This document shows, one piece after another, positions 3,222-24,542 of a stretch of 64,000 bases of DNA. A program made the position numbers and the translations under genes. The stretch is from Mytilus edulis (lineage: Eukaryota). The stretch lies in assembly GCF_963676685.1 (NCBI RefSeq), contig NC_092344.1, forward strand, positions 44,206,001-44,270,000, written 5' to 3'. Numbering within the stretch: position 1 is the first letter of the stretch; each line of letters opens with the position of its first letter. The notes under the pieces are model-generated. The model worked only from the letters and a program-made list of their open reading frames with translations. It did no database searches and was not told where the DNA came from.

Positions 3222-3284
3222 GAATTGGTAGAAATTATACGAGCCAAGAAAGCTGCAAAAGATGCAGCTGCCAAGAAGAAGTGA
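3222..3284 (+). CDS. DNAJC2: DNAJC2 last coding exon
   Basis: CAG|ELVEIIRAKKAAKDAAAKKK-TGA; AATAAA at 3289 and 3954. Confidence 0.9.
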   Translation, partial: ELVEIIRAKKAAKDAAAKKK

Positions 3285-4130
3285 GAAGAATAAACAACGT
3301 GATAAAAAACTTGTAGAAGGACATTATATATATATAGACTACTGACAAATCTGAAATTACTCCAGTACAATTGTTTATGACCATTCAGTTAAATGTTCAT
3401 TACAAAAAGTTACATGTATAATGATTAAGAATATGTATGTCATGTCAAATAGTCATGTGATAATACAATATTCCTGTATTTTTTCAAAAAATACTTAACA
3501 TATTAAACTGTTATTTACTTAAGCTTGTTACTGTGTTTGTTTGATGCCCCTACTGAACTCAGTTAGGGGTACATAGTGGTTCACATGTCAGTCTCTTTAT
3601 TGGTCCTTCTGTCTCACCTAACCTAATCTCAATATAATTTAAACCTAATGTCATGGGCATAAAATACAGGTAAAGTTTGATTGAATTTTTTTTAACCAGT
3701 TAAGTGATATGTTTCTTAAAATTGGAAGTATCAATACAAGATCTACAAAAATGCCAATACGACTGAAACCATTTGATGAATCCTAATATGATTTATTGCC
3801 CTAAATTATTTTACGATTATTTTCAGAATTATCTTAAAAACTAGAATTGATAAGTAGAAGCTGTAAACAGCAGTCTTACAACAATTATTTTGTCTGCTTT
3901 CAAAAGTACCATATGATTGAAAGTTGATTTTTTTATAACATGATGTCATAGACAATAAACTGCAGGTAAAGTGTAATTTTGACAGATTTGATATATCGGA
4001 TAAAGGTATGCTAAAGGAAAATGTTTACATGGTTTACCGTAACAATCGAATGGACAAAATAAAAGCATCCTTGAAATCGCAACAAGCTCCTTCGACGGAG
4101 CCTGTTGTGATTTCAAGGATGCTTGGGTAT

Positions 4131-4620
4131 CTAAAACTGACTCAAGGCAAGACGGACTGAGATGGCATCAGCACGTTTTTCAACAGAGGGTTCAAGCATA
4201 GAGGAGACAAGGGATTTTACGATGTCGCTAGTGTTTTCGGGTGAAAAGAGAGGGTGTTTGAGAGTTGAGCTTTGACCATAGAGGTTGCGTCACTATCGGA
4301 GAATGGGAAAGCTCCGAAGAGCATGACGTAGAGCATAACTCCCATACTCCACATGTCGGCTTTCATGGTGTTGTGTTCCATTCCCATAATAACTTCGGGG
4401 GCAGCGTATGGGAGGGTTCCACAAAATTCTTCAGATTCGGCAACAACAACGGTTGATTTGGCAAATCCAAAATCGGCCAGTTTGACACATCCATTTGATA
4501 ACAAGACGTTTTCTAATTTAATGTCATTGTGGGCGATTCCGTTTAAGTGGCAGTATTCGACTGCTTTGACAACTTGAGAGAAGACAGATAGGGTGGCTTC
4601 AACGGACATGAGGCCGTTTT
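4131..4620 (-). pseudogene. 5'-truncated, frameshifted kinase copy (copy 0)
   Basis: Matches the C-terminal two thirds of the array ORF; frameshift near 4240 (TCGGGTGAAAAG vs TCGGGGAAAG); broken by the element at 4621. Confidence 0.92.
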
Positions 4621-6867
4621 TATACGACCGCAAAATTTGAAAAAATTTTCGTCGTATATTGCTATCACGTTGGCGTCGTCGTCGTCCGAATACTTTTAGT
4701 TTTCGCACTCTAACTTTAGTAAAAATGAATAGAAATCTGTGAAATTTTAACACAAGGTTTATGACCACAAAAGGAAGGTTGGAATTGATTTTGGGAGTTT
4801 TAGTCCCAACATTTTAGGAATTAGGGGCCAAAAAGGGCCCAAATAAGCATTTTCTTGGTTTTCGCACTATAACTTTAGTTTAAGTAAATAGAAATCTATG
4901 AAATTTTGACATAAGGTTTATGACCACAAAAGAAAGGTTGGGATTGATTTTGGGAGTTTTGGTTCCAACAGTTTAGGAATTAGGGGCCAAAAAAGGGCCA
5001 AAATAAGCATTATTCTTGGTTTTCGCACAATAACTTTAGTTTAAGTAAATAGAAATCAATGAAATTTTAACACAAGCATACCCGTAGCCAGGGGGGGTTC
5101 GGGGGGTTCGGACGAACCCCCCCTTGAAAACAAATAATGACTGTTAAAGTCAACGTTCTGTTCGAATTGTGACTGTAAAAGTCGAGTTTTTGAGGCCAAC
5201 GAACCCCCCTTTGGAAATTCCTGGCTACGGGCCTGACAAGGTTTATGACCACAAAAGGAAGGTTGGGATTGATTTTTGGAGTTGAGGTCACAACAGTTTA
5301 TGAACTAGGGGCCAAAAAGGGGCCCAAATAAGCATTATTTTTGGTTTTTGCACCGTAACTTTAGTATAAGTAAATAGAAATCTATGAAATTTAAACACAA
5401 GGTTTATGACCATAAAAGGAAGGTTGGGTTTGATTTTGGGAGTTTTGGTCCTTACAGTTTAGGAATAAGGGTCCCAAAGGGTCCAAAATTGAACTTTGTG
5501 TGATTTCATCAAAAATTGAATAATTGGGGTTCTTTGATATGACGAATCTAACTATGTATGTAGATTCTTAAATTTTGGTCCCGTTTTCAAATTGGTCTAC
5601 ATTAAGATCCAAAGGGTCCAAAATTAAACTTAGTTTGATTTTAACAAAAATTGAATCCTTGGGGTTCTTTGATATGCTGAATTTAAAAATGTACTTAGAT
5701 TTTTAATTATTGGCCTAGTTTTCAAGTTGGTCCAAATGGGGGTCCAAAATTAAACTTTGTTTGATTTCATCAAAAATTGAATAAATGGGTTCTTTGATAT
5801 GCCAAATCTAACTGTGTATGTAGATTCTTAATTTTTGGTCCAGTTTTCAAATTGGTCTACATTAAGGTCCAAAGGGTCCAAAATTAAACTAAGTTTGATT
5901 TTAACAAAAATTAAATTCTTGGGCTTATTTGATATGCTTTATCTAAATATGTACTTTGATTTTTGATTATGGGCCCAGTTTTCAAGTTGGTCCAAATCAG
6001 GATTCCATATCAAGTATTGTGCAATAGCAAGAAATTTTCAATTGCACAGTATTGCACAATAGCAAGAAATATCTAATTGCACAATATTGTGCAATAGCAA
6101 TTAATTTTCAATTGGAGTTATCTTTCTTTGTATAGAATAGTAGTTGATAATATATGTTGGAAATTTGCCAGACATGACTATGATGTCATTTTCTATTTTT
6201 ATTTGCCAATAACTTTATGTAAATAACTTCATTGGAAATTTGCCAATATAAAATGTTGCTGATGAAGCTGTTTTTCCTTATCTTATCTAAAATGTTTTTA
6301 GATAATGTATGTTGGACATTTGCCAGACATGACTATGATGTCATTTTCTATTTTTATTTGCCAATAACTTTATGTAAATAACTTCATTGGAAATTTGCCA
6401 ATATAAAATGTTGCTGATGAAGTTTTTTTTATTGTTTTATACAATAAACAATGTATATTCACTTTTACTACCAACCAATCTTTACCATTCAGTGATAACA
6501 AGCACTTTATTTTACATTTTAATATTTTATGATGTATTTAAAAGAGTAGTTATTGTTGCAAACTCCATTAGAAATTTGACTTGATATCAGTTTTGGAAAA
6601 AAGGGAAACGGGGATGTGAAAAAGGGGGGGGGGGTAAATTTTTCTCATTTCAGATTTCATAAATAAAAAGAAAATTTCTTCAAACATTTTTTTGAGAGGA
6701 TTAATATTCAACAGCATAGTGAATTGCTAAAAGGCAAAAACAAACTTTTAAGTTCATTAGACCACATTCATTCTGTGTCAGAAACCTATGCTGTGTCAAC
6801 TATTTAATTTTAGATTTAAAAAGTTTGAAGAAGAAATCTTTAATTGTAAAATTTGTAAAATCTTGAC
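4621..6867 (+). mobile_element. Non-autonomous Helentron/HINE (DINE-like) element, 3'-truncated
   Basis: Starts in a T-run with TATACGAC...GTCGTATA inverted repeat and a (GTC)n microsatellite, then internal tandem repeats. Lacks the terminal hairpin seen in the related copy at ~2920-2950. Confidence 0.75.
5077..5235. mobile_element. 159-bp MITE nested in the HINE
   Basis: TIRs CATACCCGTAGCCAGG / CCTGGCTACGGGCCTG; 5-bp target duplication ACAAG at 5072-5076 and 5236-5240. Confidence 0.88.
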
Positions 6868-6919
6868 AGGTATGCTAAAGGAAAATGTTTACATGGTTTA
6901 CCGTAACAATCGAATGGAC

Positions 6920-6988
6920 AAAAAAAAAGCATCCTTGAAATCGCAACAAGCTCCTACGACGGAGCCTGTTGTGATTTCAAGGATGCTT
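6920..6988 (-). terminator. 28-bp stem-loop plus T9/T10 tract just after the kinase stop codon (one per unit); putative 3'-end formation element
   Basis: Arms 6927-6954 and 6961-6988 (26/28 Watson-Crick), 6-nt loop, A-run 6920-6928 on +. Structure is certain; function is inferred. Confidence 0.6.
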
Positions 6989-6994
6989 GGGTAT

Positions 6995-7732
6995 CTAAAA
7001 CTGACTCAAGGCAAGACGGACTGAGATGGCATCAGCACGTTTTTCAACAGAGGGTTCAAGCATAGAGGAGACAAGGGATTTTACGATGTCGCTAGTGTTT
7101 TCGGGGAAAGAGAGGGTGTTTGAGAGTTGAGCTTTGACCATAGAGGTTGCGTCACTATCGGAGAATGGGAAAGCTCCGAAGAGCATGACGTAGAGCATAA
7201 CTCCCATACTCCACATGTCGGCTTTCATGGTGTTGTGTTCCATTCCCATAATAACTTCGGGGGCAGCGTATGGGAGGGTTCCACAAAATTCTTCAGATTC
7301 GGCAACAACAACGGTTGATTTGGCAAATCCAAAATCGGCCAGTTTGACACATCCATTTGATAACAAGACGTTTTCTAATTTAATGTCATTGTGGGCGATT
7401 CCGTTTAAGTGGCAGTATTCGACTGCTTTGACAACTTGAGAGAAGACAGATAGGGTGGCTTCAACGGACATGAGGCCGTTTTTCATTATGTATTCAAAAA
7501 CATCTCCGAATTCAGCGAATTCCATCAAAACGAAGGCAAATTCTTCGGCTTCGATGATTTCAATGGCTTCGACAATGTTTTCGTGTTTGAGGCTGAGGAA
7601 AGCTTCAAACTCAGTAGAGGTTTTGAGGACTTTTTTAATTGCAACTTTACCGAATACTTCGCTAGAGGCGGAGAAAACTTCTTCAGTTAGGGCTACAACG
7701 TTTGAAAGTCCACTGTTCAATAAAAATTCCAT
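6995..7732 (-). CDS. Intronless Ser/Thr kinase, CAMK group (TSSK/AMPK-like), copy 1
   Basis: 245 aa; VAIK, alphaC Glu, HNDIKLEN, DFG, FCGTLPYAAPE, DMWSMGV, subdomain XI Arg. Confidence 0.92.
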   Translation of the reverse strand: MEFLLNSGLSNVVALTEEVFSASSEVFGKVAIKKVLKTSTEFEAFLSLKHENIVEAIEIIEAEEFAFVLMEFAEFGDVFEYIMKNGLMSVEATLSVFSQVVKAVEYCHLNGIAHNDIKLENVLLSNGCVKLADFGFAKSTVVVAESEEFCGTLPYAAPEVIMGMEHNTMKADMWSMGVMLYVMLFGAFPFSDSDATSMVKAQLSNTLSFPENTSDIVKSLVSSMLEPSVEKRADAISVRLALSQF

Positions 7733-7740
7733 TTTAAATT

Positions 7741-7795
7741 GGCGTGAATTTAGTGTAATAAAGGTATCAAAATACTGAAATTCACGCCTTATATA
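7741..7795 (-). promoter_or_regulatory. TATA box and adjacent inverted repeat upstream of the kinase ATG (one per unit)
   Basis: Minus strand TATATAA (7795-7789), then GGCGTGAATTT...AAATTCACGCC (7788-7741), then ATG at 7732. Confidence 0.6.
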
Positions 7796-8861
7796 GTGAT
7801 ATGGCTGCTACGGACTGTTCCAATAATTGATGCTCAAGGGTGGAAAGTTCAAATAAAGGCTTTCTTACACAATAAAACAGTACATTATTGAACAATCTCC
7901 CCTTTTCATTAATGGTAACTACTCTTACAAACGGTAAACAAAGTATTTGGTTGTACTAGGGCATTTATCTTATAAGTTTACCGTGTTGCCTTTTAACTGT
8001 GGTGTTTACCGTAACCATAAACTTTTACGATAAAGGTTTGCCGTAACCCAACAAGTCATTATACAGTTCAGTTTACCGTTTCGTCGTATGCAAAAATTAC
8101 CACAGCAAGCCAAATGTAAACCGATGAAATCATTTTCGTTTTAAAAGAAGATATGTGTTACCAATATATTTAAGTTATTGGGATTAGAACACGATTCCAT
8201 AAAATATATAACTATGGACTGACCATAAATTCTTGTTTACTGTAACCACATGAAATCGGTTACAAAGCCGATTCTCAAACCTTCAATACAAAGAAAGTTA
8301 GAGGATTGTTAGAGAATAATAGTCAACTTGTTTTCCATTTCTCCCCAAACCCATGAACCTCCGGCTGTAATTTTAAAATGCATTCTTGTTTACCGTAACC
8401 GCTCAATATATTAGTCCCATAATCCCATTATCACAATTAGAATATCTTATGTTATCCTTATAAGCTACAGCTTGCTTTGTTACGGGATTGTGCGGTGATA
8501 CGGTAAACTAGAATAACAATTAATGAATAGACGAAGTCGTAGCTTGCGCCTTCTAATTTTCTGTTTCTCTGCATTCAAGGTTTTTCGGAAGAAACCATTT
8601 TTAATTCACGTCACAGTAAGTCTATTAATGAAAATAGAATGAGTTTGTTGAAACAAAGAAGATGGGAAGATGAATGGAATATAAAATTGATTGATACAAT
8701 TATGTTTACCGTACCCTTATATTGTATCGGATAAAGGTATGCTAAAGGAAAATGTTTACATGGTTTACCGTAACAATCGAATGGACAAAAAAAAAGCATC
8801 CTTGAAATCGCAACAAGCTCCTACGACGGAGCCTGTTGTGATTTCAAGGATGCTTGGGTAT

Positions 8862-9599
8862 CTAAAACTGACTCAAGGCAAGACGGACTGAGATGGCATC
8901 AGCACGTTTTTCAACAGAGGGTTCAAGCATAGAGGAGACAAGGGATTTTACGATGTCGCTAGTGTTTTCGGGGAAAGAGAGGGTGTTTGAGAGTTGAGCT
9001 TTGACCATAGAGGTTGCGTCACTATCGGAGAATGGGAAAGCTCCGAAGAGCATGACGTAGAGCATAACTCCCATACTCCACATGTCGGCTTTCATGGTGT
9101 TGTGTTCCATTCCCATAATAACTTCGGGGGCAGCGTATGGGAGGGTTCCACAAAATTCTTCAGATTCGGCAACAACAACGGTTGATTTGGCAAATCCAAA
9201 ATCGGCCAGTTTGACACATCCATTTGATAACAAGACGTTTTCTAATTTAATGTCATTGTGGGCGATTCCGTTTAAGTGGCAGTATTCGACTGCTTTGACA
9301 ACTTGAGAGAAGACAGATAGGGTGGCTTCAACGGACATGAGGCCGTTTTTCATTATGTATTCAAAAACATCTCCGAATTCAGCGAATTCCATCAAAACGA
9401 AGGCAAATTCTTCGGCTTCGATGATTTCAATGGCTTCGACAATGTTTTCGTGTTTGAGGCTGAGGAAAGCTTCAAACTCAGTAGAGGTTTTGAGGACTTT
9501 TTTAATTGCAACTTTACCGAATACTTCGCTAGAGGCGGAGAAAACTTCTTCAGTTAGGGCTACAACGTTTGAAAGTCCACTGTTCAATAAAAATTCCAT
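8862..9599 (-). CDS. Array kinase copy 2
   Basis: Identical 245-aa translation. Confidence 0.92.
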   Translation of the reverse strand: MEFLLNSGLSNVVALTEEVFSASSEVFGKVAIKKVLKTSTEFEAFLSLKHENIVEAIEIIEAEEFAFVLMEFAEFGDVFEYIMKNGLMSVEATLSVFSQVVKAVEYCHLNGIAHNDIKLENVLLSNGCVKLADFGFAKSTVVVAESEEFCGTLPYAAPEVIMGMEHNTMKADMWSMGVMLYVMLFGAFPFSDSDATSMVKAQLSNTLSFPENTSDIVKSLVSSMLEPSVEKRADAISVRLALSQF

Positions 9600-10728
9600 T
9601 TTAAATTGGCGTGGATTTAGTGTAATAAAGGTATCAAAATACTGAAATTCACGCCTTATATAGTGATATGGCTGCTACGGACTGTTCCAATAATTGATGC
9701 TCAAGGGTGGAAAGTTCAAATAAAGGCTTTCTTACACAATAAAACAGTACATTATTGAACAATCTCCCCTTTTCATTAATGGTAACTACTCTTACAAACG
9801 GTAAACAAAGTATTTGGTTGTACTAGGGCATTTATCTTATAAGTTTACCGTGTTGCCTTTTAACTGTGGTGTTTACCGTAACCATAAACTTTTACGATAA
9901 AGGTTTGCCGTAACCCAACAAGTCATTATACAGTTCAGTTTACCGTTTCGTCGTATGCAAAAATTACCACAGCAAGCCAAATGTAAACCGATGAAATCAT
10001 TTTCGTTTTAAAAGAAGATATGTGTTACCAATATATTTAAGTTATTGGGATTAGAACACGATTCCATAAAATATATAACTATGGACTGACCATAAATTCT
10101 TGTTTACTGTAACCACATGAAATCGGTTACAAAGCCGATTCTCAAACCTTCAATACAAAGAAAGTTAGAGGATTGTTAGAGAATAATAGTCAACTTGTTT
10201 TCCATTTCTCCCCAAACCCATGAACCTCCGGCTGTAATTTTAAAATGCATTCTTGTTTACCGTAACCGCTCAATATATTAGTCCCATAATCCCATTATCA
10301 CAATTAGAATATCTTATGTTATCCTTATAAGCTACAGCTTGCTTTGTTACGGGATTGTGCGGTGATACGGTAAACTAGAATAACAATTAATGAATAGACG
10401 AAGTCGTAGCTTGCGCCTTCTAATTTTCTGTTTCTCTGCATTCAAGGTTTTTCGGAAGAAACCATTTTTAATTCACGTCACAGTAAGTCTATTAATGAAA
10501 ATAGAATGAGTTTGTTGAAACAAAGAAGATGGGAAGATGAATGGAATATAAAATTGATTGATACAATTATGTTTACCGTACCCTTATATTGTATCGGATA
10601 AAGGTATGCTAAAGGAAAATGTTTACATGGTTTACCGTAACAATCGAATGGACAAAAAAAAAGCATCCTTGAAATCGCAACAAGCTCCTACGACGGAGCC
10701 TGTTGTGATTTCAAGGATGCTTGGGTAT

Positions 10729-11466
10729 CTAAAACTGACTCAAGGCAAGACGGACTGAGATGGCATCAGCACGTTTTTCAACAGAGGGTTCAAGCATAGA
10801 GGAGACAAGGGATTTTACGATGTCGCTAGTGTTTTCGGGGAAAGAGAGGGTGTTTGAGAGTTGAGCTTTGACCATAGAGGTTGCGTCACTATCGGAGAAT
10901 GGGAAAGCTCCGAAGAGCATGACGTAGAGCATAACTCCCATACTCCACATGTCGGCTTTCATGGTGTTGTGTTCCATTCCCATAATAACTTCGGGGGCAG
11001 CGTATGGGAGGGTTCCACAAAATTCTTCAGATTCGGCAACAACAACGGTTGATTTGGCAAATCCAAAATCGGCCAGTTTGACACATCCATTTGATAACAA
11101 GACGTTTTCTAATTTAATGTCATTGTGGGCGATTCCGTTTAAGTGGCAGTATTCGACTGCTTTGACAACTTGAGAGAAGACAGATAGGGTGGCTTCAACG
11201 GACATGAGGCCGTTTTTCATTATGTATTCAAAAACATCTCCGAATTCAGCGAATTCCATCAAAACGAAGGCAAATTCTTCGGCTTCGATGATTTCAATGG
11301 CTTCGACAATGTTTTCGTGTTTGAGGCTGAGGAAAGCTTCAAACTCAGTAGAGGTTTTGAGGACTTTTTTAATTGCAACTTTACCGAATACTTCGCTAGA
11401 GGCGGAGAAAACTTCTTCAGTTAGGGCTACAACGTTTGAAAGTCCACTGTTCAATAAAAATTCCAT
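10729..11466 (-). CDS. Array kinase copy 3
   Basis: Identical 245-aa translation. Confidence 0.92.
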   Translation of the reverse strand: MEFLLNSGLSNVVALTEEVFSASSEVFGKVAIKKVLKTSTEFEAFLSLKHENIVEAIEIIEAEEFAFVLMEFAEFGDVFEYIMKNGLMSVEATLSVFSQVVKAVEYCHLNGIAHNDIKLENVLLSNGCVKLADFGFAKSTVVVAESEEFCGTLPYAAPEVIMGMEHNTMKADMWSMGVMLYVMLFGAFPFSDSDATSMVKAQLSNTLSFPENTSDIVKSLVSSMLEPSVEKRADAISVRLALSQF

Positions 11467-12596
11467 TTTAAATTGGCGTGGATTTAGTGTAATAAAGGTA
11501 TCAAAATACTGAAATTCACGCCTTATATAGTGATATGGCTGCTACGGACTGTTCCAATAATTGATGCTCAAGGGTGGAAAGTTCAAATAAAGGCTTTCTT
11601 ACACAATAAAACAGTACATTATTGAACAATCTCCCCTTTTCATTAATGGTAACTACTCTTACAAACGGTAAACAAAGTATTTGGTTGTACTAGGGCATTT
11701 ATCTTATAAGTTTACCGTGTTGCCTTTTAACTGTGGTGTTTACCGTAACCATAAACTTTTACGATAAAGGTTTGCCGTAACCCAACAAGTCATTATACAG
11801 TTCAGTTTACCGTTTCGTCGTATGCAATAATTACCACAGCAAGCCAAATGTAAACCGATGAAATCATTTTCGTTTTAAAAGAAGATATGTGTTACCAATA
11901 TATTTAAGTTATTGGGATTAGAACACGATTCCACAAAATATATAACTATGGACTGACCATAAATTCTTGTTTACTGTAACCACATGAAATCGGTTACAAA
12001 GCCGATTCTCAAACCTTCAATACAAAGAAAGTTAGAGGATTGTTAGAGAATAATAGTCAACTTGTTTTCCATTTCTCCCCAAACCCATGAACCTCCGGCT
12101 GTAATTTTAAAATGCATTCTTGTTTACCGTAACCGCTCAATATATTAGTCCCATAATCCCATTATCACAATTAGAATATCTTATGTTATCCTTATAAGCT
12201 ACAGCTTGCTTTGTTACGGGATTGTGCGGTGATACGGTAAACTAGAATAACAATTAATGAATAGACTAAGTCGTAGCTTGCGCCTTCTAATTTTCTGTTT
12301 CTCTGCATTCAAGGTTTTTCGGAAGAAACCATTTTTAATTCACGTCACAGTAAGTCTATTAATGAAAATAGAATGAGTTTGTTGAAACAAAGAAGATGGG
12401 AAGATGAATGGAATATAAAATTGATTGATACAATTATGTTTACCGTACCCTTATATTGTATCGGATAAAGGTATGCTAAAGGAAAATGTTTACATGGTTT
12501 ACCGTAACAATCGAATGGACAAAAAAAAAAGCATCCTTGAAATCGCAACAAGCTCCTACGACGGAGCCTGTTGTGATTTCAAGGATGCTTGGGTAT

Positions 12597-13334
12597 CTAA
12601 AACTGACTCAAGGCAAGACGGACTGAGATGGCATCAGCACGTTTTTCAACAGAGGGTTCAAGCATAGAGGAGACAAGGGATTTTACGATGTCGCTAGTGT
12701 TTTCGGGGAAAGAGAGGGTGTTTGAGAGTTGAGCTTTGACCATAGAGGTTGCGTCACTATCGGAGAATGGGAAAGCTCCGAAGAGCATGACGTAGAGCAT
12801 AACTCCCATACTCCACATGTCGGCTTTCATGGTGTTGTGTTCCATTCCCATAATAACTTCGGGGGCAGCGTATGGGAGGGTTCCACAAAATTCTTCAGAT
12901 TCGGCAACAACAACGGTTGATTTGGCAAATCCAAAATCGGCCAGTTTGACACATCCATTTGATAACAAGACGTTTTCTAATTTAATGTCATTGTGGGCGA
13001 TTCCGTTTAAGTGGCAGTATTCGACTGCTTTGACAACTTGAGAGAAGACAGATAGGGTGGCTTCAACGGACATGAGGCCGTTTTTCATTATGTATTCAAA
13101 AACATCTCCGAATTCAGCGAATTCCATCAAAACGAAGGCAAATTCTTCGGCTTCGATGATTTCAATGGCTTCGACAATGTTTTCGTGTTTGAGGCTGAGG
13201 AAAGCTTCAAACTCAGTAGAGGTTTTGAGGACTTTTTTAATTGCAACTTTACCGAATACTTCGCTAGAGGCGGAGAAAACTTCTTCAGTTAGGGCTACAA
13301 CGTTTGAAAGTCCACTGTTCAATAAAAATTCCAT
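12597..13334 (-). CDS. Array kinase copy 4
   Basis: Identical 245-aa translation. Confidence 0.92.
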   Translation of the reverse strand: MEFLLNSGLSNVVALTEEVFSASSEVFGKVAIKKVLKTSTEFEAFLSLKHENIVEAIEIIEAEEFAFVLMEFAEFGDVFEYIMKNGLMSVEATLSVFSQVVKAVEYCHLNGIAHNDIKLENVLLSNGCVKLADFGFAKSTVVVAESEEFCGTLPYAAPEVIMGMEHNTMKADMWSMGVMLYVMLFGAFPFSDSDATSMVKAQLSNTLSFPENTSDIVKSLVSSMLEPSVEKRADAISVRLALSQF

Positions 13335-14464
13335 TTTAAATTGGCGTGGATTTAGTGTAATAAAGGTATCAAAATACTGAAATTCACGCCTTATATAGTG
13401 ATATGGCTGCTACGGACTGTTCCAATAATTGATGCTCAAGGGTGGAAAGTTCAAATAAAGGCTTTCTTACACAATAAAACAGTACATTATTGAACAATCT
13501 CCCCTTTTCATTAATGGTAACTACTCTTACAAACGGTAAACAAAGTATTTGGTTGTACTAGGGCATTTATCTTATAAGTTTACCGTGTTGCCTTTTAACT
13601 GTGGTGTTTACCGTAACCATAAACTTTTACGATAAAGGTTTGCCGTAACCCAACAAGTCATTATACAGTTCAGTTTACCGTTTCGTCGTATGCAATAATT
13701 ACCACAGCAAGCCAAATGTAAACCGATGAAATCATTTTCGTTTTAAAAGAAGATATGTGTTACCAATATATTTAAGTTATTGGGATTAGAACACGATTCC
13801 ACAAAATATATAACTATGGACTGACCATAAATTCTTGTTTACTGTAACCACATGAAATCGGTTACAAAGCCGATTCTCAAACCTTCAATACAAAGAAAGT
13901 TAGAGGATTGTTAGAGAATAATAGTCAACTTGTTTTCCATTTCTCCCCAAACCCATGAACCTCCGGCTGTAATTTTAAAATGCATTCTTGTTTACCGTAA
14001 CCGCTCAATATATTAGTCCCATAATCCCATTATCACAATTAGAATATCTTATGTTATCCTTATAAGCTACAGCTTGCTTTGTTACGGGATTGTGCGGTGA
14101 TACGGTAAACTAGAATAACAATTAATGAATAGACTAAGTCGTAGCTTGCGCCTTCTAATTTTCTGTTTCTCTGCATTCAAGGTTTTTCGGAAGAAACCAT
14201 TTTTAATTCACGTCACAGTAAGTCTATTAATGAAAATAGAATGAGTTTGTTGAAACAAAGAAGATGGGAAGATGAATGGAATATAAAATTGATTGATACA
14301 ATTATGTTTACCGTACCCTTATATTGTATCGGATAAAGGTATGCTAAAGGAAAATGTTTACATGGTTTACCGTAACAATCGAATGGACAAAAAAAAAAGC
14401 ATCCTTGAAATCGCAACAAGCTCCTACGACGGAGCCTGTTGTGATTTCAAGGATGCTTGGGTAT

Positions 14465-15202
14465 CTAAAACTGACTCAAGGCAAGACGGACTGAGATGGC
14501 ATCAGCACGTTTTTCAACAGAGGGTTCAAGCATAGAGGAGACAAGGGATTTTACGATGTCGCTAGTGTTTTCGGGGAAAGAGAGGGTGTTTGAGAGTTGA
14601 GCTTTGACCATAGAGGTTGCGTCACTATCGGAGAATGGGAAAGCTCCGAAGAGCATGACGTAGAGCATAACTCCCATACTCCACATGTCGGCTTTCATGG
14701 TGTTGTGTTCCATTCCCATAATAACTTCGGGGGCAGCGTATGGGAGGGTTCCACAAAATTCTTCAGATTCGGCAACAACAACGGTTGATTTGGCAAATCC
14801 AAAATCGGCCAGTTTGACACATCCATTTGATAACAAGACGTTTTCTAATTTAATGTCATTGTGGGCGATTCCGTTTAAGTGGCAGTATTCGACTGCTTTG
14901 ACAACTTGAGAGAAGACAGATAGGGTGGCTTCAACGGACATGAGGCCGTTTTTCATTATGTATTCAAAAACATCTCCGAATTCAGCGAATTCCATCAAAA
15001 CGAAGGCAAATTCTTCGGCTTCGATGATTTCAATGGCTTCGACAATGTTTTCGTGTTTGAGGCTGAGGAAAGCTTCAAACTCAGTAGAGGTTTTGAGGAC
15101 TTTTTTAATTGCAACTTTACCGAATACTTCGCTAGAGGCGGAGAAAACTTCTTCAGTTAGGGCTACAACGTTTGAAAGTCCACTGTTCAATAAAAATTCC
15201 AT
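14465..15202 (-). CDS. Array kinase copy 5
   Basis: Identical 245-aa translation. Confidence 0.92.
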   Translation of the reverse strand: MEFLLNSGLSNVVALTEEVFSASSEVFGKVAIKKVLKTSTEFEAFLSLKHENIVEAIEIIEAEEFAFVLMEFAEFGDVFEYIMKNGLMSVEATLSVFSQVVKAVEYCHLNGIAHNDIKLENVLLSNGCVKLADFGFAKSTVVVAESEEFCGTLPYAAPEVIMGMEHNTMKADMWSMGVMLYVMLFGAFPFSDSDATSMVKAQLSNTLSFPENTSDIVKSLVSSMLEPSVEKRADAISVRLALSQF

Positions 15203-16332
15203 TTTAAATTGGCGTGGATTTAGTGTAATAAAGGTATCAAAATACTGAAATTCACGCCTTATATAGTGATATGGCTGCTACGGACTGTTCCAATAATTGA
15301 TGCTCAAGGGTGGAAAGTTCAAATAAAGGCTTTCTTACACAATAAAACAGTACATTATTGAACAATCTCCCCTTTTCATTAATGGTAACTACTCTTACAA
15401 ACGGTAAACAAAGTATTTGGTTGTACTAGGGCATTTATCTTATAAGTTTACCGTGTTGCCTTTTAACTGTGGTGTTTACCGTAACCATAAACTTTTACGA
15501 TAAAGGTTTGCCGTAACCCAACAAGTCATTATACAGTTCAGTTTACCGTTTCGTCGTATGCAATAATTACCACAGCAAGCCAAATGTAAACCGATGAAAT
15601 CATTTTCGTTTTAAAAGAAGATATGTGTTACCAATATATTTAAGTTATTGGGATTAGAACACGATTCCACAAAATATATAACTATGGACTGACCATAAAT
15701 TCTTGTTTACTGTAACCACATGAAATCGGTTACAAAGCCGATTCTCAAACCTTCAATACAAAGAAAGTTAGAGGATTGTTAGAGAATAATAGTCAACTTG
15801 TTTTCCATTTCTCCCCAAACCCATGAACCTCCGGCTGTAATTTTAAAATGCATTCTTGTTTACCGTAACCGCTCAATATATTAGTCCCATAATCCCATTA
15901 TCACAATTAGAATATCTTATGTTATCCTTATAAGCTACAGCTTGCTTTGTTACGGGATTGTGCGGTGATACGGTAAACTAGAATAACAATTAATGAATAG
16001 ACTAAGTCGTAGCTTGCGCCTTCTAATTTTCTGTTTCTCTGCATTCAAGGTTTTTCGGAAGAAACCATTTTTAATTCACGTCACAGTAAGTCTATTAATG
16101 AAAATAGAATGAGTTTGTTGAAACAAAGAAGATGGGAAGATGAATGGAATATAAAATTGATTGATACAATTATGTTTACCGTACCCTTATATTGTATCGG
16201 ATAAAGGTATGCTAAAGGAAAATGTTTACATGGTTTACCGTAACAATCGAATGGACAAAAAAAAAAGCATCCTTGAAATCGCAACAAGCTCCTACGACGG
16301 AGCCTGTTGTGATTTCAAGGATGCTTGGGTAT

Positions 16333-17070
16333 CTAAAACTGACTCAAGGCAAGACGGACTGAGATGGCATCAGCACGTTTTTCAACAGAGGGTTCAAGCA
16401 TAGAGGAGACAAGGGATTTTACGATGTCGCTAGTGTTTTCGGGGAAAGAGAGGGTGTTTGAGAGTTGAGCTTTGACCATAGAGGTTGCGTCACTATCGGA
16501 GAATGGGAAAGCTCCGAAGAGCATGACGTAGAGCATAACTCCCATACTCCACATGTCGGCTTTCATGGTGTTGTGTTCCATTCCCATAATAACTTCGGGG
16601 GCAGCGTATGGGAGGGTTCCACAAAATTCTTCAGATTCGGCAACAACAACGGTTGATTTGGCAAATCCAAAATCGGCCAGTTTGACACATCCATTTGATA
16701 ACAAGACGTTTTCTAATTTAATGTCATTGTGGGCGATTCCGTTTAAGTGGCAGTATTCGACTGCTTTGACAACTTGAGAGAAGACAGATAGGGTGGCTTC
16801 AACGGACATGAGGCCGTTTTTCATTATGTATTCAAAAACATCTCCGAATTCAGCGAATTCCATCAAAACGAAGGCAAATTCTTCGGCTTCGATGATTTCA
16901 ATGGCTTCGACAATGTTTTCGTGTTTGAGGCTGAGGAAAGCTTCAAACTCAGTAGAGGTTTTGAGGACTTTTTTAATTGCAACTTTACCGAATACTTCGC
17001 TAGAGGCGGAGAAAACTTCTTCAGTTAGGGCTACAACGTTTGAAAGTCCACTGTTCAATAAAAATTCCAT
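16333..17070 (-). CDS. Array kinase copy 6
   Basis: Identical 245-aa translation. Confidence 0.92.
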   Translation of the reverse strand: MEFLLNSGLSNVVALTEEVFSASSEVFGKVAIKKVLKTSTEFEAFLSLKHENIVEAIEIIEAEEFAFVLMEFAEFGDVFEYIMKNGLMSVEATLSVFSQVVKAVEYCHLNGIAHNDIKLENVLLSNGCVKLADFGFAKSTVVVAESEEFCGTLPYAAPEVIMGMEHNTMKADMWSMGVMLYVMLFGAFPFSDSDATSMVKAQLSNTLSFPENTSDIVKSLVSSMLEPSVEKRADAISVRLALSQF

Positions 17071-18200
17071 TTTAAATTGGCGTGGATTTAGTGTAATAAA
17101 GGTATCAAAATACTGAAATTCACGCCTTATATAGTGATATGGCTGCTACGGACTGTTCCAATAATTGATGCTCAAGGGTGGAAAGTTCAAATAAAGGCTT
17201 TCTTACACAATAAAACAGTACATTATTGAACAATCTCCCCTTTTCATTAATGGTAACTACTCTTACAAACGGTAAACAAAGTATTTGGTTGTACTAGGGC
17301 ATTTATCTTATAAGTTTACCGTGTTGCCTTTTAACTGTGGTGTTTACCGTAACCATAAACTTTTACGATAAAGGTTTGCCGTAACCCAACAAGTCATTAT
17401 ACAGTTCAGTTTACCGTTTCGTCGTATGCAATAATTACCACAGCAAGCCAAATGTAAACCGATGAAATCATTTTCGTTTTAAAAGAAGATATGTGTTACC
17501 AATATATTTAAGTTATTGGGATTAGAACACGATTCCACAAAATATATAACTATGGACTGACCATAAATTCTTGTTTACTGTAACCACATGAAATCGGTTA
17601 CAAAGCCGATTCTCAAACCTTCAATACAAAGAAAGTTAGAGGATTGTTAGAGAATAATAGTCAACTTGTTTTCCATTTCTCCCCAAACCCATGAACCTCC
17701 GGCTGTAATTTTAAAATGCATTCTTGTTTACCGTAACCGCTCAATATATTAGTCCCATAATCCCATTATCACAATTAGAATATCTTATGTTATCCTTATA
17801 AGCTACAGCTTGCTTTGTTACGGGATTGTGCGGTGATACGGTAAACTAGAATAACAATTAATGAATAGACTAAGTCGTAGCTTGCGCCTTCTAATTTTCT
17901 GTTTCTCTGCATTCAAGGTTTTTCGGAAGAAACCATTTTTAATTCACGTCACAGTAAGTCTATTAATGAAAATAGAATGAGTTTGTTGAAACAAAGAAGA
18001 TGGGAAGATGAATGGAATATAAAATTGATTGATACAATTATGTTTACCGTACCCTTATATTGTATCGGATAAAGGTATGCTAAAGGAAAATGTTTACATG
18101 GTTTACCGTAACAATCGAATGGACAAAAAAAAAAGCATCCTTGAAATCGCAACAAGCTCCTACGACGGAGCCTGTTGTGATTTCAAGGATGCTTGGGTAT

Positions 18201-18938
18201 CTAAAACTGACTCAAGGCAAGACGGACTGAGATGGCATCAGCACGTTTTTCAACAGAGGGTTCAAGCATAGAGGAGACAAGGGATTTTACGATGTCGCTA
18301 GTGTTTTCGGGGAAAGAGAGGGTGTTTGAGAGTTGAGCTTTGACCATAGAGGTTGCGTCACTATCGGAGAATGGGAAAGCTCCGAAGAGCATGACGTAGA
18401 GCATAACTCCCATACTCCACATGTCGGCTTTCATGGTGTTGTGTTCCATTCCCATAATAACTTCGGGGGCAGCGTATGGGAGGGTTCCACAAAATTCTTC
18501 AGATTCGGCAACAACAACGGTTGATTTGGCAAATCCAAAATCGGCCAGTTTGACACATCCATTTGATAACAAGACGTTTTCTAATTTAATGTCATTGTGG
18601 GCGATTCCGTTTAAGTGGCAGTATTCGACTGCTTTGACAACTTGAGAGAAGACAGATAGGGTGGCTTCAACGGACATGAGGCCGTTTTTCATTATGTATT
18701 CAAAAACATCTCCGAATTCAGCGAATTCCATCAAAACGAAGGCAAATTCTTCGGCTTCGATGATTTCAATGGCTTCGACAATGTTTTCGTGTTTGAGGCT
18801 GAGGAAAGCTTCAAACTCAGTAGAGGTTTTGAGGACTTTTTTAATTGCAACTTTACCGAATACTTCGCTAGAGGCGGAGAAAACTTCTTCAGTTAGGGCT
18901 ACAACGTTTGAAAGTCCACTGTTCAATAAAAATTCCAT
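18201..18938 (-). CDS. Array kinase copy 7
   Basis: Identical 245-aa translation. Confidence 0.92.
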   Translation of the reverse strand: MEFLLNSGLSNVVALTEEVFSASSEVFGKVAIKKVLKTSTEFEAFLSLKHENIVEAIEIIEAEEFAFVLMEFAEFGDVFEYIMKNGLMSVEATLSVFSQVVKAVEYCHLNGIAHNDIKLENVLLSNGCVKLADFGFAKSTVVVAESEEFCGTLPYAAPEVIMGMEHNTMKADMWSMGVMLYVMLFGAFPFSDSDATSMVKAQLSNTLSFPENTSDIVKSLVSSMLEPSVEKRADAISVRLALSQF

Positions 18939-20068
18939 TTTAAATTGGCGTGGATTTAGTGTAATAAAGGTATCAAAATACTGAAATTCACGCCTTATAT
19001 AGTGATATGGCTGCTACGGACTGTTCCAATAATTGATGCTCAAGGGTGGAAAGTTCAAATAAAGGCTTTCTTACACAATAAAACAGTACATTATTGAACA
19101 ATCTCCCCTTTTCATTAATGGTAACTACTCTTACAAACGGTAAACAAAGTATTTGGTTGTACTAGGGCATTTATCTTATAAGTTTACCGTGTTGCCTTTT
19201 AACTGTGGTGTTTACCGTAACCATAAACTTTTACGATAAAGGTTTGCCGTAACCCAACAAGTCATTATACAGTTCAGTTTACCGTTTCGTCGTATGCAAT
19301 AATTACCACAGCAAGCCAAATGTAAACCGATGAAATCATTTTCGTTTTAAAAGAAGATATGTGTTACCAATATATTTAAGTTATTGGGATTAGAACACGA
19401 TTCCACAAAATATATAACTATGGACTGACCATAAATTCTTGTTTACTGTAACCACATGAAATCGGTTACAAAGCCGATTCTCAAACCTTCAATACAAAGA
19501 AAGTTAGAGGATTGTTAGAGAATAATAGTCAACTTGTTTTCCATTTCTCCCCAAACCCATGAACCTCCGGCTGTAATTTTAAAATGCATTCTTGTTTACC
19601 GTAACCGCTCAATATATTAGTCCCATAATCCCATTATCACAATTAGAATATCTTATGTTATCCTTATAAGCTACAGCTTGCTTTGTTACGGGATTGTGCG
19701 GTGATACGGTAAACTAGAATAACAATTAATGAATAGACTAAGTCGTAGCTTGCGCCTTCTAATTTTCTGTTTCTCTGCATTCAAGGTTTTTCGGAAGAAA
19801 CCATTTTTAATTCACGTCACAGTAAGTCTATTAATGAAAATAGAATGAGTTTGTTGAAACAAAGAAGATGGGAAGATGAATGGAATATAAAATTGATTGA
19901 TACAATTATGTTTACCGTACCCTTATATTGTATCGGATAAAGGTATGCTAAAGGAAAATGTTTACATGGTTTACCGTAACAATCGAATGGACAAAAAAAA
20001 AAGCATCCTTGAAATCGCAACAAGCTCCTACGACGGAGCCTGTTGTGATTTCAAGGATGCTTGGGTAT

Positions 20069-20806
20069 CTAAAACTGACTCAAGGCAAGACGGACTGAGA
20101 TGGCATCAGCACGTTTTTCAACAGAGGGTTCAAGCATAGAGGAGACAAGGGATTTTACGATGTCGCTAGTGTTTTCGGGGAAAGAGAGGGTGTTTGAGAG
20201 TTGAGCTTTGACCATAGAGGTTGCGTCACTATCGGAGAATGGGAAAGCTCCGAAGAGCATGACGTAGAGCATAACTCCCATACTCCACATGTCGGCTTTC
20301 ATGGTGTTGTGTTCCATTCCCATAATAACTTCGGGGGCAGCGTATGGGAGGGTTCCACAAAATTCTTCAGATTCGGCAACAACAACGGTTGATTTGGCAA
20401 ATCCAAAATCGGCCAGTTTGACACATCCATTTGATAACAAGACGTTTTCTAATTTAATGTCATTGTGGGCGATTCCGTTTAAGTGGCAGTATTCGACTGC
20501 TTTGACAACTTGAGAGAAGACAGATAGGGTGGCTTCAACGGACATGAGGCCGTTTTTCATTATGTATTCAAAAACATCTCCGAATTCAGCGAATTCCATC
20601 AAAACGAAGGCAAATTCTTCGGCTTCGATGATTTCAATGGCTTCGACAATGTTTTCGTGTTTGAGGCTGAGGAAAGCTTCAAACTCAGTAGAGGTTTTGA
20701 GGACTTTTTTAATTGCAACTTTACCGAATACTTCGCTAGAGGCGGAGAAAACTTCTTCAGTTAGGGCTACAACGTTTGAAAGTCCACTGTTCAATAAAAA
20801 TTCCAT
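20069..20806 (-). CDS. Array kinase copy 8
   Basis: Identical 245-aa translation. Confidence 0.92.
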   Translation of the reverse strand: MEFLLNSGLSNVVALTEEVFSASSEVFGKVAIKKVLKTSTEFEAFLSLKHENIVEAIEIIEAEEFAFVLMEFAEFGDVFEYIMKNGLMSVEATLSVFSQVVKAVEYCHLNGIAHNDIKLENVLLSNGCVKLADFGFAKSTVVVAESEEFCGTLPYAAPEVIMGMEHNTMKADMWSMGVMLYVMLFGAFPFSDSDATSMVKAQLSNTLSFPENTSDIVKSLVSSMLEPSVEKRADAISVRLALSQF

Positions 20807-21936
20807 TTTAAATTGGCGTGGATTTAGTGTAATAAAGGTATCAAAATACTGAAATTCACGCCTTATATAGTGATATGGCTGCTACGGACTGTTCCAATAA
20901 TTGATGCTCAAGGGTGGAAAGTTCAAATAAAGGCTTTCTTACACAATAAAACAGTACATTATTGAACAATCTCCCCTTTTCATTAATGGTAACTACTCTT
21001 ACAAACGGTAAACAAAGTATTTGGTTGTACTAGGGCATTTATCTTATAAGTTTACCGTGTTGCCTTTTAACTGTGGTGTTTACCGTAACCATAAACTTTT
21101 ACGATAAAGGTTTGCCGTAACCCAACAAGTCATTATACAGTTCAGTTTACCGTTTCGTCGTATGCAATAATTACCACAGCAAGCCAAATGTAAACCGATG
21201 AAATCATTTTCGTTTTAAAAGAAGATATGTGTTACCAATATATTTAAGTTATTGGGATTAGAACACGATTCCACAAAATATATAACTATGGACTGACCAT
21301 AAATTCTTGTTTACTGTAACCACATGAAATCGGTTACAAAGCCGATTCTCAAACCTTCAATACAAAGAAAGTTAGAGGATTGTTAGAGAATAATAGTCAA
21401 CTTGTTTTCCATTTCTCCCCAAACCCATGAACCTCCGGCTGTAATTTTAAAATGCATTCTTGTTTACCGTAACCGCTCAATATATTAGTCCCATAATCCC
21501 ATTATCACAATTAGAATATCTTATGTTATCCTTATAAGCTACAGCTTGCTTTGTTACGGGATTGTGCGGTGATACGGTAAACTAGAATAACAATTAATGA
21601 ATAGACTAAGTCGTAGCTTGCGCCTTCTAATTTTCTGTTTCTCTGCATTCAAGGTTTTTCGGAAGAAACCATTTTTAATTCACGTCACAGTAAGTCTATT
21701 AATGAAAATAGAATGAGTTTGTTGAAACAAAGAAGATGGGAAGATGAATGGAATATAAAATTGATTGATACAATTATGTTTACCGTACCCTTATATTGTA
21801 TCGGATAAAGGTATGCTAAAGGAAAATGTTTACATGGTTTACCGTAACAATCGAATGGACAAAAAAAAAAGCATCCTTGAAATCGCAACAAGCTCCTACG
21901 ACGGAGCCTGTTGTGATTTCAAGGATGCTTGGGTAT

Positions 21937-22674
21937 CTAAAACTGACTCAAGGCAAGACGGACTGAGATGGCATCAGCACGTTTTTCAACAGAGGGTTCA
22001 AGCATAGAGGAGACAAGGGATTTTACGATGTCGCTAGTGTTTTCGGGGAAAGAGAGGGTGTTTGAGAGTTGAGCTTTGACCATAGAGGTTGCGTCACTAT
22101 CGGAGAATGGGAAAGCTCCGAAGAGCATGACGTAGAGCATAACTCCCATACTCCACATGTCGGCTTTCATGGTGTTGTGTTCCATTCCCATAATAACTTC
22201 GGGGGCAGCGTATGGGAGGGTTCCACAAAATTCTTCAGATTCGGCAACAACAACGGTTGATTTGGCAAATCCAAAATCGGCCAGTTTGACACATCCATTT
22301 GATAACAAGACGTTTTCTAATTTAATGTCATTGTGGGCGATTCCGTTTAAGTGGCAGTATTCGACTGCTTTGACAACTTGAGAGAAGACAGATAGGGTGG
22401 CTTCAACGGACATGAGGCCGTTTTTCATTATGTATTCAAAAACATCTCCGAATTCAGCGAATTCCATCAAAACGAAGGCAAATTCTTCGGCTTCGATGAT
22501 TTCAATGGCTTCGACAATGTTTTCGTGTTTGAGGCTGAGGAAAGCTTCAAACTCAGTAGAGGTTTTGAGGACTTTTTTAATTGCAACTTTACCGAATACT
22601 TCGCTAGAGGCGGAGAAAACTTCTTCAGTTAGGGCTACAACGTTTGAAAGTCCACTGTTCAATAAAAATTCCAT
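21937..22674 (-). CDS. Array kinase copy 9
   Basis: Identical 245-aa translation. Confidence 0.92.
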   Translation of the reverse strand: MEFLLNSGLSNVVALTEEVFSASSEVFGKVAIKKVLKTSTEFEAFLSLKHENIVEAIEIIEAEEFAFVLMEFAEFGDVFEYIMKNGLMSVEATLSVFSQVVKAVEYCHLNGIAHNDIKLENVLLSNGCVKLADFGFAKSTVVVAESEEFCGTLPYAAPEVIMGMEHNTMKADMWSMGVMLYVMLFGAFPFSDSDATSMVKAQLSNTLSFPENTSDIVKSLVSSMLEPSVEKRADAISVRLALSQF

Positions 22675-23804
22675 TTTAAATTGGCGTGGATTTAGTGTAA
22701 TAAAGGTATCAAAATACTGAAATTCACGCCTTATATAGTGATATGGCTGCTACGGACTGTTCCAATAATTGATGCTCAAGGGTGGAAAGTTCAAATAAAG
22801 GCTTTCTTACACAATAAAACAGTACATTATTGAACAATCTCCCCTTTTCATTAATGGTAACTACTCTTACAAACGGTAAACAAAGTATTTGGTTGTACTA
22901 GGGCATTTATCTTATAAGTTTACCGTGTTGCCTTTTAACTGTGGTGTTTACCGTAACCATAAACTTTTACGATAAAGGTTTGCCGTAACCCAACAAGTCA
23001 TTATACAGTTCAGTTTACCGTTTCGTCGTATGCAATAATTACCACAGCAAGCCAAATGTAAACCGATGAAATCATTTTCGTTTTAAAAGAAGATATGTGT
23101 TACCAATATATTTAAGTTATTGGGATTAGAACACGATTCCACAAAATATATAACTATGGACTGACCATAAATTCTTGTTTACTGTAACCACATGAAATCG
23201 GTTACAAAGCCGATTCTCAAACCTTCAATACAAAGAAAGTTAGAGGATTGTTAGAGAATAATAGTCAACTTGTTTTCCATTTCTCCCCAAACCCATGAAC
23301 CTCCGGCTGTAATTTTAAAATGCATTCTTGTTTACCGTAACCGCTCAATATATTAGTCCCATAATCCCATTATCACAATTAGAATATCTTATGTTATCCT
23401 TATAAGCTACAGCTTGCTTTGTTACGGGATTGTGCGGTGATACGGTAAACTAGAATAACAATTAATGAATAGACTAAGTCGTAGCTTGCGCCTTCTAATT
23501 TTCTGTTTCTCTGCATTCAAGGTTTTTCGGAAGAAACCATTTTTAATTCACGTCACAGTAAGTCTATTAATGAAAATAGAATGAGTTTGTTGAAACAAAG
23601 AAGATGGGAAGATGAATGGAATATAAAATTGATTGATACAATTATGTTTACCGTACCCTTATATTGTATCGGATAAAGGTATGCTAAAGGAAAATGTTTA
23701 CATGGTTTACCGTAACAATCGAATGGACAAAAAAAAAAGCATCCTTGAAATCGCAACAAGCTCCTACGACGGAGCCTGTTGTGATTTCAAGGATGCTTGG
23801 GTAT

Positions 23805-24542
23805 CTAAAACTGACTCAAGGCAAGACGGACTGAGATGGCATCAGCACGTTTTTCAACAGAGGGTTCAAGCATAGAGGAGACAAGGGATTTTACGATGTC
23901 GCTAGTGTTTTCGGGGAAAGAGAGGGTGTTTGAGAGTTGAGCTTTGACCATAGAGGTTGCGTCACTATCGGAGAATGGGAAAGCTCCGAAGAGCATGACG
24001 TAGAGCATAACTCCCATACTCCACATGTCGGCTTTCATGGTGTTGTGTTCCATTCCCATAATAACTTCGGGGGCAGCGTATGGGAGGGTTCCACAAAATT
24101 CTTCAGATTCGGCAACAACAACGGTTGATTTGGCAAATCCAAAATCGGCCAGTTTGACACATCCATTTGATAACAAGACGTTTTCTAATTTAATGTCATT
24201 GTGGGCGATTCCGTTTAAGTGGCAGTATTCGACTGCTTTGACAACTTGAGAGAAGACAGATAGGGTGGCTTCAACGGACATGAGGCCGTTTTTCATTATG
24301 TATTCAAAAACATCTCCGAATTCAGCGAATTCCATCAAAACGAAGGCAAATTCTTCGGCTTCGATGATTTCAATGGCTTCGACAATGTTTTCGTGTTTGA
24401 GGCTGAGGAAAGCTTCAAACTCAGTAGAGGTTTTGAGGACTTTTTTAATTGCAACTTTACCGAATACTTCGCTAGAGGCGGAGAAAACTTCTTCAGTTAG
24501 GGCTACAACGTTTGAAAGTCCACTGTTCAATAAAAATTCCAT
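23805..24542 (-). CDS. Array kinase copy 10
   Basis: Identical 245-aa translation. Confidence 0.92.
   Translation of the reverse strand: MEFLLNSGLSNVVALTEEVFSASSEVFGKVAIKKVLKTSTEFEAFLSLKHENIVEAIEIIEAEEFAFVLMEFAEFGDVFEYIMKNGLMSVEATLSVFSQVVKAVEYCHLNGIAHNDIKLENVLLSNGCVKLADFGFAKSTVVVAESEEFCGTLPYAAPEVIMGMEHNTMKADMWSMGVMLYVMLFGAFPFSDSDATSMVKAQLSNTLSFPENTSDIVKSLVSSMLEPSVEKRADAISVRLALSQF

Follow-up and report, generated by a model that had tools for sequence, protein, structure and literature searches.

What sets the 3′ end of an mRNA when the stop codon of its gene is followed almost at once by a long, nearly perfect hairpin and a run of T residues? This question is raised by a tandem array of kinase genes in a 64,000-nucleotide stretch of Mytilus edulis DNA (the window). 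There are 10 head-to-tail units in the array (6869..25540, minus strand), they are 1867-1868 bp each and 99.7-100% identical, and every one of them carries an open reading frame (ORF), a hairpin, a T tract and a short downstream motif. A related array, described below, is present on a second contig, and we refer to the two as the C1 array (in the window) and the C3 array.

A hairpin and T tract downstream of the stop codon

On the minus strand of the first unit, the TAG stop codon (6995-6997) is followed by six nucleotides (ATACCC) and then by a 62-nucleotide hairpin (6927..6988, minus strand, read from 6988 to 6927), whose basal 17 bp are common to the C3 paralogues. The corresponding hairpins of the C1 array start at positions 6927, 8794, 10661, 12529, 14397, 16265, 18133, 20001, 21869 and 23737, all on the minus strand. 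The sequence and coordinates of the hairpin and its six-nucleotide distance from the stop codon had been given correctly in an earlier note on this DNA. The same holds for its length, its single G:U pair and its one A-C mismatch, but the ‘28-bp stem’ described there has 27 pairs plus the mismatch. Specifically, the predicted fold consists of 16 pairs, the A-C mismatch and 11 further pairs (one of them G-U), and it is closed by a 6-nucleotide loop. Its free energy is -46.1 kcal/mol (z -11.1), a value equalled by 0 of 200 shuffled sequences. The hairpin folds alike on both strands, and therefore the stem gives no strand bias. As DNA it is also stable (-26.5 kcal/mol).

A T9 tract is located directly 3′ of the stem (6920..6928, minus strand), and two of its U residues form the last pairs of the stem. 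Tract length is T9 in units 1-3 and T10 in units 4-10, in agreement with the U9/10 reported earlier. A stable stem followed immediately by a run of U residues is the pattern by which intrinsic terminators are recognized (criterion, 7-9 U), and this pattern is present here. A bacterial terminator scan, whose rule counts at most 20 pairs, did not list the hairpin.

Comparable stems are absent from all nine other kinase frames in the genome, at least four of whose stops are probably intron read-ins, and the 70-nucleotide minimum free energies of these frames range from -7.6 to -19.6, versus -46.7 and -30.7 here. Among unrelated kinase loci from metagenomes and viruses (129 usable of 152), the best stem has 18 pairs versus 27 here, although these are mostly protist and viral genes and form a weak control.

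A frameshifted and 5′-truncated copy of the unit, which we call copy 0, is found at 3994..4609 (minus strand), with its hairpin at 4063-4124 and its motif at 4032-4043. It differs from a full unit by two substitutions and two inserted bases over 628 aligned columns. One substitution (4060) interrupts the tract and the other (4092) falls in the loop while the stem is intact, exactly as had been noticed before. An unbroken stem is expected by chance in this copy (P 0.69). The probability that both substitutions fall within the 15 loop and tract bases is 0.0006, or 0.003 if all four differences are counted.

The 5′ part of copy 0 is replaced by a foreign, repeat-rich insertion (4610..6868, no strand assigned). 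This insertion starts at a T run that is accompanied by a short inverted repeat and by a (GTC)n stretch. Such a start may be akin to that of Helentron-derived elements of bivalves. Tandem repeats are also present within the insertion, as is a short cassette of inverted repeats near 5080-5235. On the plus strand, a terminal exon near 3225-3285 ends about 700 nucleotides from copy 0 and is convergent with it. At the upstream end of the array there is a partial, diverged (95.5%) duplicate of the spacer (25532..25731, minus strand). Just past that end are pieces of a 456-bp MITE-like element (25753-25788), and the same element is found again, split, 10 kb further on (36196-37293). Exons of an MBT-repeat gene (SFMBT/L3MBTL-like; Pfam PF02820) are located at 42020-49634 (minus strand), 17 kb upstream of the array.

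The encoded kinase

The ORF of the first unit (6995..7732, minus strand) is intron-less and encodes a 245-amino-acid kinase of the CAMK group (TSSK/MARK-like). The catalytic K, D, N, DFG and APE residues are kept, whereas HRD has become HND, the activation-loop T has become E, and there is no GxGxxG. In 16 of 16 aligned family members, the catalytic D, K and N and the DFG are kept, the HRD-Arg and the GxGxxG are absent, and a Glu is located where MARK has its activation-loop Thr. Because the catalytic residues are kept and Glu occupies the position of this Thr, the kinase is predicted to be active without activation-loop phosphorylation.

Its close relatives comprise Mytilus proteins annotated as ‘TSSK3-like’ as well as unnamed proteins (67-83% identical), and the link of the family to testis is this database name only. 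Records from ark clam and abalone reveal multi-copy small TSSK-like kinases in these molluscs too. In a quick tree of TSSK and other CAMK kinases, the mussel family forms its own clade (support 100) on a long branch and is left unplaced among TSSK and MARK. A feature search ranks TSSK3/6 clusters first, the best relatives with solved structures are MARK kinases, and the AlphaFold model of the kinase is poor (pLDDT 61). TSSK proteins also have a CAMK-group domain encoded without introns, but their HRD and phosphorylatable activation-loop Thr are absent from the mussel family. The ORF is slightly more structured than codon-shuffled versions of itself (z -2.1, 40 shuffles). The best kinase relative in a metagenome scan is 38% identical, among the matches listed, and there is no close relative in prokaryote genome contigs.

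Conservation in a paralogous array

A search of the genome at E <= 1e-30, in which 150 of 191 candidates were scored, gave 19 matches to the kinase. Eleven are in the C1 array, six are on C3 (90-91% identity) and two are ordinary TSSKs. The C1 and C3 kinases share 91% amino acid identity, with dS 0.26 and dN/dS 0.147, and 19 of 101 four-fold sites differ between them. The kinase is under purifying selection.

The C3 hairpin is a perfect 17-bp stem with a 4-nucleotide loop, located some 13 nucleotides after the stop codon and followed by a T8-10 tract. It corresponds to the C1 stem minus a near-symmetric 20-nucleotide tip. In the basal stem, 33 of 34 bases are the same in C1 and C3. With the mean rate, P is 0.007 for so few differences, and with local rates it ranges from 0.0003 to 0.13. 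The sole change turns the A-C mismatch of C1 into a pair in C3. Thus, the check for compensatory changes that had been suggested for homologous units yields one one-sided, pair-restoring change and no two-sided changes between C1 and C3, and it is the stem sequence itself, beyond pairing alone, that is kept. Palindromes can correct themselves.

There is also a decayed and inverted remnant without an ORF, located 6 kb from the C3 array (G000:C3:19686650-19686950, plus strand). In this remnant, the TATA box and 5′ UTR are joined straight to the 3′ arm of a long hairpin, wherein the ORF was deleted at a GGA-C(T) microhomology, and the tract and downstream motif have been lost to decay. Given this surviving 3′ arm, the ancestral hairpin was probably the long one. 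In both broken copies, copy 0 and the C3 remnant, the tract is the part that decays first. Each kinase gene ends with hairpin, T tract and motif as a single conserved unit.

The C3 kinase array is interrupted by 108 kb of tandem repeats of a different, non-coding 1.74-kb unit (G000:C3:19699223-19807339). Most of the 1.74-kb units carry the 456-bp MITE-like element, and the block includes one assembly gap. The MITE is found at both ends of the block, which is flanked by a 5-bp AAATG duplication, as in a composite insertion that was later amplified.

Both the 20-nucleotide deletion in C3 and the rearrangement in the remnant break at the hairpin tip, and thus the palindrome looks fragile as DNA. 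Perhaps it derives from an old inverted duplication and persists as a self-repairing cruciform carried by concerted evolution, whether or not it also contributes to amplification. This origin would agree with the stability of the DNA fold, the equal folding of both strands, the near-symmetry of the tip deletion in C3, the end of the remnant’s deletion at the loop and the altered loop of copy 0. However, a fragile neutral palindrome should vanish, but its basal 17 bp are still there at a dS of 0.26, as are the tract and the spacing, and neither the array ends nor the unit junctions coincide with the hairpin. We therefore regard a purely DNA-level palindrome as improbable. The array ends are located from about 60 nucleotides to about 1 kb from the hairpin, which speaks against the proposal in the earlier note of a cruciform that aids amplification.

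Small RNAs and mobile elements

The C1 stem is nearly perfect and of pre-miRNA size, and an RNase III enzyme (Drosha or Dicer) might cut it, thereby ending the transcript, yielding a small RNA, or both. RNase III-like cleavage of hairpins defines mRNA ends in Mimivirus (PMC4402537). We consider this route quite unlikely for the mussel gene, as the 17-bp C3 stem is too short for a duplex of about 22 nucleotides. For comparison, Drosha needs a stem of about 35 bp. There is no Rfam match at the gathering score (best 28.8 bits versus 230). Furthermore, a 14-mer from the hairpin arm is found at the kinase loci and in only four single hits elsewhere in 1.37 Gb, and consequently there is no obvious target family. 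The short C3 stem with its 4-nucleotide loop and the null Rfam result argue against a pre-miRNA or co-amplified small RNA, as had been suggested, being the conserved function.

The confinement of the hairpin arm to the kinase loci, together with array ends that are located elsewhere, also argues against a transposon end or a role in amplification. It is very improbable indeed that the hairpin is the terminus of a Helitron or Helentron, a MITE or a virus-derived unit carrying the kinase. The presence of arrays on two contigs might have pointed this way, as might the hairpins at Helitron-type ends and their capacity for tandem arrays. However, the array ends away from the hairpin, the arm is not dispersed, and there is no CTRR or target-site duplication around the hairpin. 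In addition, the best viral relative of the kinase is 37% identical, and a degenerate scan of viral contigs returned 0 matches. A Helitron, MITE or viral end is thus largely refuted by the boundary, dispersal, CTRR/target-site and viral-relative tests.

A repeated motif at a fixed distance from the tract

The sequence GTTACGGTAAAC, a putative site for a roadblock protein, is located at 6896..6907 (minus strand), exactly 12 nucleotides past the tract. It is one copy of a repeated motif, ACGGTAAAC, for which there are eight exact matches in each C1 spacer versus a mean of 0.01-0.015 and a maximum of 1 in 2000 shuffles. Altogether, there are 10 sites of the ACGGTAAAC type per C1 spacer, and there are 0 matches in the remaining 38 kb of the window. 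Five such sites, one of them inverted, form a cluster (7931..8079, minus strand) upstream of a TATA box (CTATATAAG; 7788..7796, minus strand) that is kept in the C3 units. The motif is likely to be a protein-binding site.

All 16 copies whose tract is unbroken (10 C1 and six C3) have a gap of exactly 12 nucleotides between the T tract and the motif, and they represent two independent lineages only. Six of the 12 gap bases differ between C1 and C3 although the gap length is fixed. The distance from the base of the hairpin to the motif is 22 nucleotides in both arrays. Given about nine motifs per kb, the chance of finding a motif in the 12-nucleotide slot is about 6%.

Genome-wide searches for this arrangement returned 58 matches to motif doublets versus 200 in the control, 36 matches to tract plus motif versus 42, and 187 matches to motif plus TATA box versus 409. 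The non-kinase loci that were inspected (12 for the doublets and 10 for tract plus motif) are unrelated repeats or chance matches. All of these searches require the same motif, and therefore a gene family that uses another motif would be missed. Paired ACGGTAAAC sites are also found, together with a C/G-tract hairpin, in a 1.1-kb repeat family (G000:C1:97187938-97192309, C1:5549010 and C1:8672063), which showed no homology to the kinase unit. A stem can form in the 5′ UTR of the C1 units (7741-7787, minus strand), directly behind the TATA box; it folds better in unit 1, which has a G>A variant, and is not retained in the C3 units.

A possible terminator for RNA polymerase II

The 22-nucleotide geometry from stem base to motif, taken together with published spacings, causes us to consider hairpin, T tract and motif as a candidate terminator that sets the mRNA 3′ end. 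We put this forward tentatively, as the most plausible reading, although one that is short of probable. Among the explanations offered in the earlier note, unusual 3′-end processing is the one that we would favour, given that the basal stem, the tract and the motif spacing are retained in C3.

Perhaps the kinase gene is transcribed by RNA polymerase II (Pol II) from the TATA box to give a transcript with a predicted length of about 0.9 kb. A factor bound to the motif would then activate the next unit and also block read-through into it. The protein on the motif would stall Pol II over the T tract. A stall 12-15 nucleotides before the motif would leave an rU:dA hybrid, with the stem at the RNA exit, 7-10 nucleotides behind the 3′ end. 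The weak hybrid and the hairpin might together release the transcript within the tract. The hairpin would subsequently protect a short-lived mRNA that ends in oligo(U) and that either has no tail or receives one later. Such a terminator would define the mRNA end and shield the next promoter, which is located about 1 kb on.

The closest likeness is to the Pol I terminator. Yeast Pol I with purified components stops in a T-rich stretch 15 bp upstream of a Reb1/Nsi1 site, and release requires an upstream hairpin whose 16-bp base suffices (PMC12366685). The mussel unit has the same order of hairpin, T tract and putative protein site, with similar spacing and likewise in a tandem array, and its 17-bp base is the part that is conserved. 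Given the published geometry (PMC12366685, PMC5052057), a terminator of the Pol I type should have its protein site about 12-20 nucleotides past the T-rich tract, and the mussel geometry conforms to this range in 16 of 16 copies from two lineages, all with an unbroken tract. However, the Pol I terminator serves pre-rRNA, whereas the mussel element is found at the end of a protein-coding gene with a TATA box.

Related features are described for Pol II. In yeast, a Pol II roadblock peak precedes a Reb1 site by 12 bp (PMC5052057). Cleavage-independent release of Pol II at T tracts occurs in yeast and mammals, mostly less than about 3 kb from the start and with short genes included (PMC7615648, PMC11610936). 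In yeast this release needs no hairpin (PMC7615648), and in human cells the RNAs terminated at T tracts are exosome substrates (PMC11610936). Bacterial intrinsic termination and Pol II roadblock termination thus share with the mussel gene a stem followed by U8-10, a gene of less than 1 kb, and a tract that ends 12 nucleotides from a putative site (PMC7615648, PMC11610936, PMC5052057). In contrast to bacterial intrinsic terminators, the mussel stem is longer (17-27 bp) and is not GC-rich. The known Pol II cases are mostly non-coding or fail-safe RNAs that need no hairpin and are degraded by the exosome, whereas the end of a main mRNA is proposed here (PMC7615648, PMC11610936). A review sets these termination grammars side by side (PMC13675443).

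A wider claim is rather doubtful, namely that this is a non-histone animal protein-coding family with a non-polyadenylated mRNA, wherein a DNA-bound roadblock would release Pol II at a hairpin and U tract, in the manner of Pol I at rDNA, and wherein amplification and a phosphomimetic loop would yield a burst of always-on kinase. Outside the histones, no animal mRNA is established as non-polyadenylated, to our knowledge, and for this reason the prior for the terminator reading is low. A literature search by title and the start of the abstract, largely outside subscription journals, found no description of the kinase family or of the 3′ element, and there is none in passages of PMC4883820 and PMC4402537.

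If the mRNA does end within the U tract, the kinase gene would represent a natural case of a protein-coding gene, transcribed by Pol II, that takes its main 3′ end from the grammar of Pol I and bacterial terminators. Alongside histone mRNAs, its transcript would define a second class of animal mRNA without a tail (or tailed late), and this class would be invisible to poly(A) RNA-seq. The unit would also be a compact natural substrate for testing the contribution of hairpin and roadblock to productive T-tract termination by Pol II. If the mRNA is instead polyadenylated downstream, there would still be an undescribed conserved 3′ element in amplified mussel kinases that are predicted to be phosphorylation-independent, which is of modest interest.

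Poly(A) signals and sequencing contigs

The earlier statement that no AATAAA follows the hairpin is true for the whole 988-nucleotide spacer, but this absence is not beyond chance, as 20% of 2000 shuffles lack AATAAA too. An ATTAAA, a candidate ordinary poly(A) signal, is present 182 nucleotides past the tract of the next unit (8600..8605, minus strand), and thus to describe the hairpin as standing in place of a poly(A) signal overstates the case. In C3, there is an ATTAAA at +242 and an AATAAA at +424 past the tract. The first poly(A) hexamer is found 33-252 nucleotides after the stop in eight of the nine comparison kinase frames, probable read-in stops included, versus 257 and 302 here, and these distances are thus similar to those at some ordinary kinase genes of the genome.

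Given these signals, it is possible, if on the unlikely side, that the kinase mRNA is an ordinary polyadenylated one. Its 3′ UTR would open with a conserved stem and a U-rich element controlling translation, localisation or stability, for instance through double-stranded-RNA binders and U-rich binders, and the motif would be an enhancer site of the next unit and nothing else. The conservation of the stem sequence beyond pairing would suit an element of this kind, as would the clustering of motifs upstream of the TATA box and the one RNA-library contig that reads through the hairpin (see below). However, the candidate signals are at non-homologous positions in the two arrays, where the spacer has diverged, and the fixed 12-nucleotide gap is left unexplained.

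There are 24 sequencing runs with matches, all of them as contigs. Eight are recorded as RNA, all metatranscriptomic, and four of the 24 were aligned to the unit. In these four runs, the contigs extend beyond the ORF over the spacer and the promoter, and two of them connect across the unit. Because of this wider cover, they behave like DNA and do not establish transcription. In an RNA library (X3), one contig continues through the hairpin to about 130 nucleotides past the tract. In the other three (X1, X2 and X4), the hairpin region has little or no cover, and X4 is deeper over the ORF. Neither observation counts as evidence, as these are contigs and both paralogues pile on the ORF.

Comparison with other classes of RNA and gene

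By the features tested, the 3′ element is outside the miRNA, histone stem-loop, Helitron and Mimivirus classes. Replication-dependent histone genes are likewise short, intron-less, TATA-driven and tandemly amplified, with a hairpin close behind the stop codon. However, they carry a 6-bp/4-nucleotide SLBP stem-loop and a purine-rich element, whereas the mussel kinase element has a U tract instead of purines. Histone stem-loop/U7 processing was rejected because the GGYYCTTTTMAGRGCC 6-bp stem, 4-nucleotide loop and purine-rich element are absent from the kinase unit. There are 672 canonical histone stem-loops with a downstream AAAAGAR element in this genome.

The ‘hairpin rule’ of Mimivirus also involves a palindrome that directly follows the stop codon, where the mRNA presumably ends, as here, but it requires a viral RNase III and a poly(A) polymerase in a cytoplasmic factory (PMC4402537). 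An origin of the Mimivirus type was rejected because there is no close viral relative and the context is chromosomal, beside an MBT-domain gene. One viral contig has an 18-pair hairpin of the hairpin-rule type located 4 nucleotides after a kinase stop codon, and its sequence is unrelated to that of the mussel element.

A Pol III transcript or natural shRNA was rejected in view of eight T4-T5 runs that are located after the TATA box and before the hairpin. The motif is reminiscent of the human U6 PSE. An snRNA-type (PSE/SNAPc) gene was rejected because the U6 array locus has 0 motif matches and a different upstream sequence. The U6 snRNA genes themselves are repeated in tandem every 733 bp, with at least 48 copies (G000:C10:45057210-45092312).

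The motif was also rejected as an rDNA terminator site (TTF1/Reb1-type), since there is no match within two mismatches in the spacer of two rDNA units. Only CGGTAAA is common to the two, and it is found inside a palindromic sub-repeat. The rDNA spacer (G000:C8:16296-17459 and C8:17750-18010) is composed in part of 108-bp sub-repeats, each with a palindrome containing CGGTAAAA, and there are 12 of these sub-repeats in one unit and 25 in another. A telomere-type (TAACCC)n block is located inside the rDNA spacer, after the sub-repeats.
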